A stretch of 64,000 nucleotides of DNA, taken from Eledone cirrhosa (Eukaryota). Position 1 is the first letter of the stretch; every line of letters begins with the position of its first letter. The notes under the pieces are model-generated. The model did not search any database and was not told the origin of the DNA. It was given only the letters and a program-made list of their open reading frames with translations. Positions 12,591 to 57,737 of the stretch are shown here, one piece after another. The stretch lies in NCBI GenBank assembly GCA_964016885.1, contig OZ024756.1, positions 24,924,001 to 24,988,000 of the forward strand, written 5' to 3'. Made by a program: the position numbers and the translations under genes.

Positions 12591-12848
12591 TATTAAAATA
12601 ACAGATTAAAGTTTAAGCAAAGAATCACTGCTTTCACCCTTAACGGGCGGGATCTTCTGAAACTAAAAATTATTAAAATAACAGATTAAAGTTTAGTTTC
12701 AGAAGATCCCGTTAAGGGTGAAAGCAGTGATTCTTTGCTTAAACTTTAATCTGTTATTTTAATATTTGCTCTAGGGTTCTTATATATTTTATATATATTT
12801 ATCCTTATCGAGCCCTCTTTGGATTTTAGTCTTCACATTTATTATTAT
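12591..12848 (+). mobile_element. Fold-back element with variant hammerhead fold (family D)
   Basis: Inverted arms ~12591-12667 and 12692-12764; AGTTT-CAGAAGA-TCCC.GGGT-GAAAGCA..TGCTT-AAACT at 12695-12745; other copies at 24074, 25568 and 57582. Confidence 0.7.
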
Positions 12849-13189
12849 TTGCCTTTCATCCTTACGGAGTCGATAAAATAAAGTACCAGTAATGCACTGG
12901 GTAATTGCTGGCCTTGTGCCTAAAGTAGAAACAATTATTATTACTATATATATATATAATTAGAAAATGTAGAAATCTTAAACACAGAAAATAACTGTAA
13001 AATAGTCGATTGTTAAAAATAATAATAGCTTAGGAAATCAAGCAAAAACACACCTGCTGTAAGGGTTTTTACCCACTTATTTAAGCTTTTATTTATATCA
13101 GCCAACCATGTTTATAGTTATTCTCTGCATTTGAGATTTCTAGTCAGTAAGCACCTCTTAACCCAATATACACCCCACCCTCCCATTTC

Positions 13190-13442
13190 CGTCCACTGTA
13201 TCAGTGACACAACCAAAAGCACCCAGTCCACACTGTAGAGTGGTCGTGTCGGAGACACGGTAAAAAGGCTCCCAGTCCACACTGTAAAAGTGGTTGGTGT
13301 TAGGAAGGGTATCCGGCCATAGACAACCTGCCAGAGACACTTCCGTACAAGCAAGACACGGTCTCCCAACCAATTCCGCATCAGATGGAACAAAACCGTC
13401 TAACCCATGGAAGATGGACGTTAAATGATGATGATGATGATG
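13190..13442 (+). mobile_element. SINE family B 3' portion (alternative tail)
   Basis: ~48-bp internal unit, GGTGTTAGGAAGGG, CCGTCTAACCCATG...GGACGTTAAA(TGA)n. Confidence 0.8.
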
Positions 13443-13582
13443 AACTCCTCGATAGTTTAATTTCGAAATGGAGTATTTATATATAATGTGTCTTTTCAAA
13501 AGCAGTTGAGTGTGAATTCAAGGAGAATTGGCTACTATTTCTAGCATGACGGATGACAGCCTAAAGGCTTGTCATTATTCTT

Positions 13583-13745
13583 GGTGGATTGGCAGTACTG
13601 GTAGAAGGTCCGACGCCATGCTTTGCAGCAAAGAGTTACGTCGAGGCTTAACTTTGCCTTTCATCCTTACGGGGTCGATAAAATAAAGTACCAGTAATAC
13701 ACTGACATAATTGCTGGCCTTGTGCCAAAAGTAGAAACAATTATT
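13583..13745 (+). mobile_element. SINE family A
   Basis: Head GTGGATTGGCAGTA, core and tail as in 34962-35146, with an internal deletion. Confidence 0.85.
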
Positions 13746-14161
13746 CTTGTTGTTGATGGTGGTGGTTGTGCATATATGCATCATGCTAGAAATAGCAGCC
13801 AATTTTCCTTGAATTCACAGCCAACTGTTTTTAAAGACATTATACATACATACACACACACATACACATTTTTAGTTAAAAAAAAACAAACAAAAAATGA
13901 TAAAAAGAATAGTGAATACGTGTAACAGAGTTTATTGGTTTGAAGTTGATGAATCATTTCGTAGCTACTCGGAGTTTTTTGCTACACCCAATCCTTCTTC
14001 GTGCACTATGTATATATACATATATTGAAACTGCTCGCAGAATATACGAAACTTTATTTAATATTTGATAAGATTGTTATACCAATCAAAACCAGTTATA
14101 TTTAATGCAACAAATATAAAATTATTCATTCTGCTGGATTAAAGAAAAAAGTAATCTTTAA

Positions 14162-14345
14162 CCCTTTAACATTTAAGCCAAAACTCTTTCATCTTTTTCT
14201 GTTCAAACTGGCCACTCATACTGATGTTAAGGTATTGTTCTCAAAATATATAACATCAAAATCTCTTAGATTCGATATTATGTGAGATAAAGCTTTTTCT
14301 GTGAGAATACAATAGTAAATATAGAGTAATGTAAATGCTGAAAGG
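14162..14345. mobile_element. piggyBac-like MITE
   Basis: TTAA-flanked; CCCTTTAACATTTA ... TAAATGCTGAAAGG ends. Confidence 0.75.
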
Positions 14346-14424
14346 TTAAATATACTTCTGTGCTTTTCCACCTTTATATTTTCAGTCTCTCTCTCTCTCT
14401 CTCTCTCTCTCTGTGTGTGTGTGT

Positions 14425-54240: not shown

Positions 54241-54652
54241 TATATATATATATATAATATATAAGATCAAAAGATGGTTAAAAGAGTTCCATGTATTTTA
54301 TTATGCGCATTTCAAAAACAAGTTTTTGAAATCTTATATATTATTTATACTCCAGTCCTACAAATTGTAGAGTGCTTCTTATCCGATATCTGCATTGCTT
54401 TATTGTACTACAATAAAACTCACCTCCAACATGATTTCATTCATTAAGGACAAGATCGTTCACTCCACTGCATGAGAAATTGCAATAGATGTGACAGCAA
54501 CATATACACGCACAATCAATTCTGCTTATTTGCATACTGGATATTTGCCAAATTCTGTCAGTTTAATAACCAAATTATGTATCTATACATAAAATTCTAA
54601 AACTCAATTTCGGTTAATTGCATTTTTTTTAAAAATTCGATTTTGAGTTTAA

Positions 54653-54873
54653 CCCTTTAGCATTTAAACTGCTCATATCCGGCCAGAATTCTCTCATCTC
54701 TTTCTATTCAAACTGGTTGTAACCGGCTACTCATACTGATGCTAAGGTATTGTTCTCAAACTAAATAATATCAAAATCTCATAGATTCGATATTATGTGA
54801 AATAACGATGTGAGGTAAAGCCTTTACTGTGAAAATATAATAGTAAATATAGAGTAATGTAAATGGAAGAGGG
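54653..54873. mobile_element. piggyBac-like MITE
   Basis: TTAA|CCCTTTAGCATTTA ... GGG|TTAA; same family as 42837-43057. Confidence 0.85.
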
Positions 54874-55109
54874 TTAAAAAAAACCCTGACAGAATCAGCA
54901 TAAAATTAATCATTTATTTGAATTACCATTGAATAAAGTAATTCTGAAATCTTCTGTTTTGATGATATGTTCAAATTATTGCACTCTGTAGAACTTCACT
55001 GGTGTGTAACTCATTTGACACCAAACAGACAGATGAAACTAAAACGTTTGTTTTCAAAGTGTTTATATTTCTCTAATCGTCAGATAGAAGGCTTTGTAGC
55101 ATTCCCCCA

Positions 55110-55650
55110 GATGGCACTGTAGAAATAGTCAACAGTTTCTGATACCTGGGTGACCAAATTAGTGGTGAAGGTGGGTGGTCTGAAAGTACAGCAGCCAGAA
55201 TAAGAATGGGATGGAGAAAGATCAAGGAAGCTACTACCACTATTAGCTTCAAAAGGTTTTTCTTTCAAAATGGAGGGCAGATAGTATGATACATGTATAT
55301 GAACAGCAATGTTGCATGGTAATGAGACCTGGGTTGTATGTGTAGAGGACCTGCAGAGATTGGAAAGAAATGAAGCTTCCATGCTCCAATGGATGTGTAA
55401 TATTAATATACATGAACATCAAAGCGTAAATGAACTGACAGAGAAAGTGGGCATAAGAGGAATCAGATGCAGTGTGCAGGAGAGGAGAATGTGTTGGTAT
55501 GACCATGTGATGCATATGAAGGATGACAGCTGTATAAAAAGGGCCATGGCAATCAAAGTTGATAGAAGCTATGGAGTAGGAAGACCTGGGATGAGGTGGA
55601 AAAAGCTGACCTTGCACAAGAGATCTCTGGCATTATGCTGTAATACAGAA
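55110..55650 (+). pseudogene. Decayed RTE-clade LINE ORF2 C-terminal fragment
   Basis: VNSF*YLGDQIS, ARIRMGWRKIKEATT, MLHGNETWVVCVEDLQRLERNEASMLQWMC, RRMCWYDHVMHM, GRPGMRW. Confidence 0.88.
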
Positions 55651-55822
55651 GACCCACCTTCTCATGTACATGGGTTAAAGCATGCATCTATTATGCACCA
55701 CTTAACTTCTATCCTCCCTCACCCTCCCATACGCCTCCCACGCCCAAACACTCCACCCTTGTCCTAACACCCCACACATCACCCACAAATTTACACCCCC
55801 TCCCCAACCTCCAGTCAACAAA

Positions 55823-56380
55823 GTAAAGTGGTCATGCTGGTATCACAACAAAAAGCACCCAGCCCACACTGTAAAGTGGTCATGCTGGTATCACTACAAA
55901 AAGCACCCAGCCCACACTGTAAAGTGGTCATGCTGGTATCACAACAAAAAGCACCCAGCCCACACTGTAAAGTGGTCATGCTGGTATCACTACAAAAAGC
56001 ACCCAGCCCACATTGTAAAGTGGTTGTGTGGGTGTCATGACAAAAAGCACCCAGCCCACACTGTAAAGTGGTCATGCTGGTATCACAACAAAAAGCACCC
56101 AGCCCACACTGTAAAGTGGTCATGCTGGTATCACAACAAAAAGCACCCAGCCCACACTGTAAAGTGGTCGTGTGGGTGTCATGACAAAAAGCATCCAGCC
56201 AACACTGTAAGCGAGGTTGGCATTAGGAAGGGCATCCTGTCATAGAAACCAAGCCAGGAAGAGTTCTGTATGAGCAAGACACAGTCACCTGACTTGACTT
56301 GCCTCAAATGAGACAACCCATCTAACCCATGCTAGCATGGAAAATAGATGTTAAACAATGATGATGATGATGATGATGAT
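55823..56380 (+). mobile_element. SINE B 3' portion with its internal 48-bp unit expanded 8 times (55823-56206)
   Basis: GTAAAGTGG at exact 48-bp spacing, then ATTAGGAAGGGCATCC and (GAT)n tail. Confidence 0.9.
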
Positions 56381-57581
56381 GAGGAGGAGGAGGAGGAGGG
56401 GGGGGGGGGAGGGGGGGGGGAGGGGGGGGGGGAGGGGGGGGGGGGGAGGGGGGGGGGAGGAGGATCGAGGTCAACTTTGTCTTTCATCCTTTCGAGGTCA
56501 ATAACAAAAAAGTACCTGTTCAGTACTAAGGTTGATTTTTTTTGCTCTGTATCTCTTTCTCATCCCCATATCTCTCTCTCTCTCTCTCTCTTTTCCCCTC
56601 TCTCTTCCCCCTCTCTCTCTCTTCTCTATCTCCCCCCCCCCCCCTCTCTCTTTCGCCCCCCACCCCTCTCTATGGAAGAAATTGGCTGTCTTCCAACCTT
56701 GAAAAGAATGTACTCCAGCAGGTTAAAATTCCCCAAATTGTCATATTTGACAACAGCACCCTTACAACTTCATCAAGAGTTAAAGATCCATATATACATA
56801 TTTAAGTAAAAACCCTCCATCTTAATGTTATCTAACAACTCTTTTTTAACCCTTTTGACACCAAACCTGTTTATTCTTAATTGTTTATATTTATCTAAAC
56901 ACCTTCCATCATAATTGTTATTCAGGGATCTTTGTTGTGTTGCCCTCCAAACATCTGCTTAAGAATGAGGAAATTAGTGATATTACTAAATCTCTCCAAA
57001 TTCTTGATTATTTTCAAAATTACTTGTAAACCATAAGCAGTGTCTTTCATTAGATTAACAGCAGCTGGAAATTGTCGAAATTATCAACAGGATAGTATAG
57101 TAACATTTAAAATTTCAAAATATCTGCACAAGCTACACATTTTTCTAATAATTTCTTTTCTACTTAAGCAATAAATTTAATTTTGTAGTGTTTTATACAA
57201 GAAACAAATATGGCTGCCCAGAACAAATGAAAGTAACATGAAATGTTAACAAATATGTATGTAGGTATTTATGTATGTATGTATATATGTACATATGTAT
57301 GTATGTATGTATGTACAGATATGTATGTGTGTGTTACTTTTCTGTCATAAAAAACTGTGACTGTAGATCAATTAAATATTTCATTTGAAGGTAAACAACA
57401 AGTCCATCTCTGATAGTTTTCCAATAGATTAAATAAATAAATATTATTAGCTCTTGCTGCATCAAACCGATATATTTTTCACAATAATATATACATACAT
57501 ACATATAAAAATATATATATACACACACACACACACATATATATATATATATATATATATATATATATATATATATATATA

Positions 57582-57737
57582 GTAATAATAATAAAATTGA
57601 AGACTAAAATCCGAAGAGGGCTCGATAAGGAAAATATATATCAAATATATAAGAACCGTAGAGCAAATATTTATTAAAATAACAGATTAAAGTTTAAGCA
57701 GCGATTCTTTGCTTAAACTTTAATCTGTTATTTTAAT
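57582..57737 (-). mobile_element. Family D copy with a 28-bp fold-back
   Basis: Arms 57673-57700 and 57710-57737, loop GCGATTCTT; (TA)n on both sides. Confidence 0.82.

Follow-up and report, generated by a model that had tools for sequence, protein, structure and literature searches.

We analysed a 64,000-nt stretch of the genome of Eledone cirrhosa (assembly GCA_964016885.1, contig OZ024756.1, positions 24,924,001 to 24,988,000; hereafter the window), in which four loci carry short copies of one repeat. We favour, with moderate confidence, the explanation that these loci are 5'-truncated copies of a high-copy repeat that has two fixed 3' ends and is likely the pseudo-long terminal repeat (pseudo-LTR) of a Penelope-like element (PLE), and that the inverted arms found in them were made by twin priming. 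The observations are two ends 85-92 nt apart, variable 5' starts, joints at which the arms overlap, abut or leave a gap, and (TA)n flanks; the steps of the mechanism are deduced from the geometry of the joints in a small, support-ranked sample.

The window has a G+C content of 32% and abundant TA microsatellites, and looks like non-coding animal DNA. A 13-mer at the short end of the repeat occurs eight times in the 64 kb (12592, 12672, 12751, 24166, 24192, 25567, 57673 and 57725), confined to four loci that we named A, B, C and D, with the sense strand of the element defined as 12692-12849 (+) (Table 1). As a preliminary description of this stretch had stated, three of the four copies carry inverted self-copies, which we found as perfect head-to-head arms of 58 bp in locus A (12590-12647/12708-12765, with 20 bp more past a 4-nt duplication), 24 bp with a 3-nt loop in locus B (24160-24183/24187-24210) and 28 bp with a 9-nt loop in locus D (57673-57700/57710-57737). 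BLAST recovered these self-inversions with E-values of 7e-61, 6e-17 and 5e-26 for A, B and D, respectively. Of the arm lengths given earlier (about 75, 24 and 28 bp), the latter two were found unchanged and the first as 58+20 bp; however, this arm of locus A is not joined to the long arm, since a third (mini) arm, perfect over 25 bp, lies between them. The order in locus A is TA run, short arm (-), mini arm (-), long arm (+), a piece resembling a short interspersed element (SINE), and TA run. The mini arm lies head-to-tail with its short neighbour and meets the long arm head-to-head via a 4-nt microhomology.

All five pieces that lack a tail (the short arms of A, B and D, the mini arm of A and the lone copy C) stop at the base equal to 12764, which is 24 nt past the predicted cut of a hammerhead-like motif (see below) and matches the common end placed earlier at about 25 nt past the cleavage site. 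The long arms (3/3) extend 85-92 nt further to a shared second end, and each of the three window inversions pairs one long end with one short end. Neither this tail with its own fixed end nor the third arm of locus A had been mentioned before. TA runs flank all four loci on both sides, on the right of locus A beyond the inserted SINE-like piece, whereas positions within or immediately ahead of a (TA)4+ run make up about 7% of 9000-64000. In locus C, the 30 nt adjoining the motif match an upstream loose end seen family-wide in reads, which identifies C as a longer truncated copy; the rest of its upstream sequence would also belong to the element. The SINE-like piece is probably a secondary insertion at the end of the locus A tail. 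Many window copies of this presumed SINE were found by BLAST at 92-97%; the repeat (12848-12947) has copies at 11820, 13653, 18582, 23594, 35057 and other positions, and its 3' end resembles the long end of the family. A window-wide repeat search was dominated by TA satellites. Weak BLAST matches at 29259, 48009, 54242 and 63546 look like AT-rich chance matches and were rejected as further copies.

Table 1 Features of the repeat family and the adjoining insertion in the window.
Feature	Position	Strand	Description
Locus A short arm	12592..12669	-	Entire hammerhead-like motif; stem II has a 4-nt duplication; fixed short end runs into (TA)7
Locus A third (mini) arm	12670..12695	-	Spans predicted cut site to short end
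Locus A long arm	12692..12849	+	Contains hammerhead-like motif and short-end site (12764); tail reaches about 12849
Type I hammerhead-like motif	12695..12745	+	Read by hand
Tail between the two fixed 3' ends, locus A	12765..12849	+	85 nt; about 92 in locus B
5'-truncated piece of a different, SINE-like repeat	12848..12958	+	At (ATT)n end of locus A tail, then (ATT)n, (TA)n
Locus B long arm	24074..24184	-	Begins just past predicted cut; full tail; TA run at end
Locus B short arm	24180..24210	+	Begins at or beside predicted cut (5-nt microhomology); terminates at short end
Locus C lone copy	25567..25844	-	About 190 nt of sequence precedes the motif, whose stem I is extended; short end; flanked on either side by (TA)n
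Locus D long arm	57582..57700	-	Begins at 3' strand of predicted stem III; full tail; ends in (TA)22
Locus D short arm	57696..57737	+	Begins at 5' strand of predicted stem III; carries loop; terminates at short end

The reference 12690-12850 was compared with 4 of 23 runs. Two of these were contig sets, one from organism A (13075 records) and one from organism B (1530); the other two were raw runs of organism A with 12598 and 12957 reads, made up of 150-nt restriction site-associated DNA (RAD) reads from the species of the window. Among the 24 of 626 loose-end results listed, ends running into (TA)n at 12764-12765 were found in 3840/12598 and 3852/12957 reads. At the far side of the tail, loose ends fell at 12849 (1143 and 1170 reads in the two raw runs) and molecule ends at 12839 (1226 and 1383 reads), confirming the two discrete 3' ends family-wide. 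The repeat is a high-copy family with thousands of very short copies, and organism B has a diverged form of it with a comparable pair of ends. The earlier statement that short ends run into (TA)n is borne out by these reads, but the end of the mini arm of A adjoins element DNA; the proposed fixed second site corresponds to the end common to short arms and reads. A further large loose end at 12814, with about 1000 reads in each run and 96% agreement, seems to stem from one locus or from a different repeat. A 4-nt insertion at 12760, at the short end, splits the family (1530/6215 reads in run X21); it is present in B and D and absent from the long arm of A. Partial tandems were also observed, formed by the mini and short arms of A, by a joint from 12733 to 12692, and by joints from 12845/12846 to 12692 in run X4 (organism B), where four contigs have the end of the tail joined head-to-tail with the beginning of the extended stem I. 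The latter unit, about 170 nt with one motif, is possibly a retrozyme-like tandem.

Fifteen of 85 joints were listed, ranked by read support, and 14 of these change strand. As the read output does not state orientation, orientation was judged by length, which allows no arrangement but head-to-head for 12/14; the other two were assigned by inference and fit exactly. All 14 opposite-strand joints differ, and none exceeds 89 reads in a run of about 12,600; 13 recur in both raw runs, the remaining one was found in one raw run and in contigs, and 5/14 are present in contigs. Taken with the fixed short end, these different joints indicate that inversions arise per insertion with a fixed second end, as had been proposed, and neither inherited breakpoint subfamilies nor scattered short-arm ends were seen in the reads. 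The shorter side reaches exactly a fixed end in 10/14 joints (chance 0.11 each). Relative to the short end, the downstream arm overlaps in five joints, is flush in four (12761-12765) and leaves a gap in five, starting inside the tail; the flush class has a p value of 0.002, or 0.014 if two near-identical joints are counted once. At the four flush joints the upstream arm ends at the short end and the arms are thus not nested; in 9/14 joints the downstream arm starts at or past the short end. Microhomology amounts to 4-5 nt in 3/3 window joints and to at least 3 nt in 4/14 read joints, compared with 7% by chance (p about 0.014), while 9/14 read joints show 0-1 nt of complementarity. Of the enrichments that the preliminary description proposed to look for, that for microhomology is therefore present, but microhomology is optional. 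Both full arms of locus A have the same minority base, at a position where 86% of family reads show C, which fits one donor. The loop of locus D reads in short-arm orientation; a fold-back of the long cDNA cannot produce this, and the short cDNA contains no tail that could serve as template.

The predicted cut belongs to a motif in which three stems around a core, GAAA and UH are all present. Stem I (12695-12699/12741-12745) has 5 bp, with 9 bp more past a U-rich loop in copy C, the core spans 12700-12706, stem II (12708-12718) has 3 bp, GAAA lies at 12720-12723, stem III (12723-12726/12736-12739) has 4 bp, and the cut is predicted at 12740/12741. Core position 4 is A in 3/3 full window copies, stem II opens with U.U, and no variant at 12701 was found among the 40 of 163 read variants that were listed. 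Natural hammerhead variants include U.U at 10.1/11.1 and U4C (PMC3088659); U4A is not named as one in the excerpt of that source, and the literature search gave no natural example in the excerpts covered. In copy C the hammerhead fold has -4.8 kcal/mol compared with -8.8 kcal/mol for the minimum free energy (MFE) structure, and the motif region folds no better than shuffles (z -0.42). Rfam at the gathering score gave no match, and hence no hammerhead, in the whole window, and at E up to 10 only three weak unrelated matches in copy C. We therefore refer to the motif as hammerhead-like and to its cut site as predicted. The 5' starts compatible with 12741 (mini arm of A, locus B, one read joint and one tandem) are no more than suggestive of self-cleavage. 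Position 12695, the first base of stem I beside the U-rich loop, is the start of 3/14 listed inversion joints, and both full arms of A start within a few bases of it, the long arm within its microhomology. The joint of locus D lies at the two strands of predicted stem III, where the turn had been placed before. One contig (run X1, joint 12759 to 12741) carries tandem short pieces from predicted cut to short end, like the mini arm of A, a hint that a cut end may stop the reverse transcriptase (RT). A conserved tail hairpin beside the short end was considered and rejected (z -1.63, -1.40 and -0.39 in three copies; the commonest variant at 12774 breaks a pair).

Under the twin-priming reading, an endonuclease would nick both strands of a (TA)n target. 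One of the DNA ends would then prime reverse transcription at the tail end of the RNA, and its counterpart would do so inside the RNA, at a fixed position 24 nt beyond the hammerhead-like cut. Both cDNAs would stop early, the tail cDNA halting short of, at, or beyond the internal site, and the two cDNA 3' ends would be joined, often via a few complementary bases supplied by the hammerhead stems. The palindromic appearance would then be a property of the overlapping class only. Template switching, which the preliminary description had invoked, would apply only in the form of two cDNAs annealing. The mini arm of locus A would represent a second start at the same internal site; its end at that site against element DNA suggests that the RNA-protein complex, rather than pairing with (TA)n, determines the site. 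Alternatively, the mini arm could derive from a second insertion.

Several points weigh against this reading. The overlap class (5/14 read joints and 3/3 window joints) requires either strand displacement or another RNA, target duplications are unreadable in (TA)n, and PMC11167929 found no difference in start sites between strands, so that strict pairing of long and short ends is not established. None of the three joints of the window itself appears in the 15 of 85 listed, the joint sample is small, support-ranked and drawn from short RAD reads, and the three joints at 12695 adjoin the edge of the reference. As for the element itself, no RT or GIY-YIG domain was found linked to the copies, an exact 28-nt pattern had no matches in metagenome contigs, a 65-residue open frame upstream in copy C has no Pfam match, the tail is longer than 30-40 nt, and the hammerhead core is non-canonical with a fold that is not the MFE structure.

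An alternative explanation, which we consider unlikely, is that two separate RNAs of the same element are copied by a dimeric protein, one per nicked strand, from the same two start sites. The anole PLE protein is predicted to form a dimer and extends both strands (PMC11167929); two RNAs would yield overlapping arms without strand displacement, and the mini arm of A has a terminal AA, as does the 4-nt-longer variant, these bases being absent from the long arm of A. However, copying from separate RNAs would not explain why long arms end flush with the short end in 4/14 joints, and the minority base common to both full arms of A also speaks against them.

Less probable again is self-priming or fold-back at hairpins of the RNA or cDNA, after which the endonuclease would cut one arm back to the short end. 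An antisense template for such self-priming has been proposed from junction palindromes (PMC3846280), and the 3/3 window joints in hairpin stems and the above-chance complementarity of 4/14 read joints are in line with it. A single-cDNA fold-back requires that the copied arm be nested in the template arm and that the loop lie on the template arm; trimming would lift the nesting requirement, and PMC8557442 ascribes the tail to endonuclease resolution. Against it, most read joints (9/14) have next to no complementarity, and in five, 0-3 bp would have to close a loop of 85-100 nt. The loop of D lies on the short arm, the short end of the mini arm of A adjoins element DNA and not target, and tail ends correspond to RT start sites in vitro (PMC11167929). 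The loop orientation in D, the starts at or past the short end in 9/14 joints and the scarce complementarity do not support hairpin self-priming as the general cause, which the preliminary description had put forward.

It is more doubtful still that the repeat is no PLE but the 3' end of a SINE or long interspersed element (LINE) with an (ATT)n tail; in that case a LINE enzyme would mobilise it, and ordinary twin priming would favour one AT-rich site. The long end does resemble the 3' end of the co-resident SINE-like repeat, and no PLE protein was seen. LINE internal priming is nevertheless described as spurious and variable (10.1101/2024.08.27.596794), whereas here it is fixed to 1-2 nt. The lone short-ended copy C, the head-to-tail partial tandems and the hammerhead-like motif near the 3' end fit descriptions of PLEs.

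A few inherited palindromic subfamilies, a miniature inverted-repeat transposable element or foldback transposon, or assembly or library chimeras are largely refuted and very improbable: fold-back chimeras do occur in libraries and the window's own joints were not among the 15 listed, but the joints differ per locus, each makes up less than 1% of reads, 13/14 recur in two runs and five in contigs of another study, and the arms are variable and unequal with an asymmetric end, in contrast to fixed symmetric terminal inverted repeats.

The repeat likely belongs to the endonuclease-containing (EN+) PLEs (Penelope, Poseidon, Neptune, Naiad), for which published accounts describe a head-to-head inverted 5'-truncated copy of variable size (PMC2377424, PMC8557442), the inverted repeats differing in size from copy to copy (PMC2377424). 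A tail of 30-40 bp, often on one end only, and (TA)n targets are also typical (PMC8557442); here, 4/4 loci lie in TA runs and the loose ends in reads are (TA)n. Further likenesses are palindromes at the junction (PMC3846280), a hammerhead in the pseudo-LTR with opposite-strand pairs 100-700 bp apart (PMC4209133), very short truncated insertions (PMC9977147), the partial-tandem arrangement, and an optional 3' tail with two discrete 3' ends. Unlike these elements, the present family has A4 in the core, U.U at stem II and a long stem III, no open reading frame was found in the pseudo-LTR or tail, and no protein was linked to the family. In vitro, Poseidon of Anolis initiates reverse transcription at two sites that lie downstream of the hammerhead and bound the tail, nicks and extends both strands, and acts on AT-rich targets, although its start sites lie inside the open reading frame in an AC-rich stem loop (PMC11167929). 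Twin priming of L1 likewise produces a head-to-head 5' inversion with deletion or duplication at the joint and cDNAs joined by microcomplementarity, the first cDNA falling short of or overrunning the internal primer; it differs in that internal priming in L1 needs a poly(A) tail and occurs at variable sites (10.1101/2024.08.27.596794), whereas the site here is fixed at 12764-12765 and also ends lone copies. Non-LTR retrozymes are short non-coding type I hammerhead units from PLE pseudo-LTRs (PMC7229834; 10.64898/2026.07.22.740005), which the head-to-tail joints of about 170-nt units in organism B contigs may resemble; in contrast, the window copies are dispersed, truncated and inverted rather than tandem monomers, and their core is non-canonical.

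Elsewhere in the window, positions 1-8720 form an 8.7-kb TA-rich minisatellite block with internal higher-order repeats, and another short repeat at 63575-63770 (+) and 8720-8945 has internal inverted segments between TA runs in both orientations. A frame at 48143-48532 (-) matches SH3_9 weakly (E 0.0056, which misses the curated cut-off) and is possibly a host exon, in which case the copies may be intronic. Three frames (15171-15524 (-), 22774-23118 (+) and 55303-55767 (+)) resemble C-terminal ends of LINE proteins; the two of them scanned against Pfam gave no match.

The architecture described here has itself been published; the long tail, the A4 hammerhead-like core and the evidence from the joints against published self-priming are new. 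Our literature search found no paper applying twin priming to PLEs, but it left older Penelope reviews largely uncovered and is not proof of absence. A broader reading, which we advance only tentatively, is that programmed twin priming makes the Penelope-type inverted repeats and that the A4 hammerhead may still cut in vivo. On the same RNA, the protein would position a second DNA primer at a fixed site, each inversion would consist of one tailed and one untailed arm, palindromes would be the overlap end of a series running from gap through flush to overlap, and cutting by the A4 hammerhead would set the 24-nt minimal arms. The arms of thousands of very short copies fit in one read, which makes the mechanism countable, and nesting, loop orientation and the flush peak distinguish the models. 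The origin of the tandem and inverted structures of PLEs has been named as open (PMC8557442); if true, programmed twin priming would replace the published self-priming reading.

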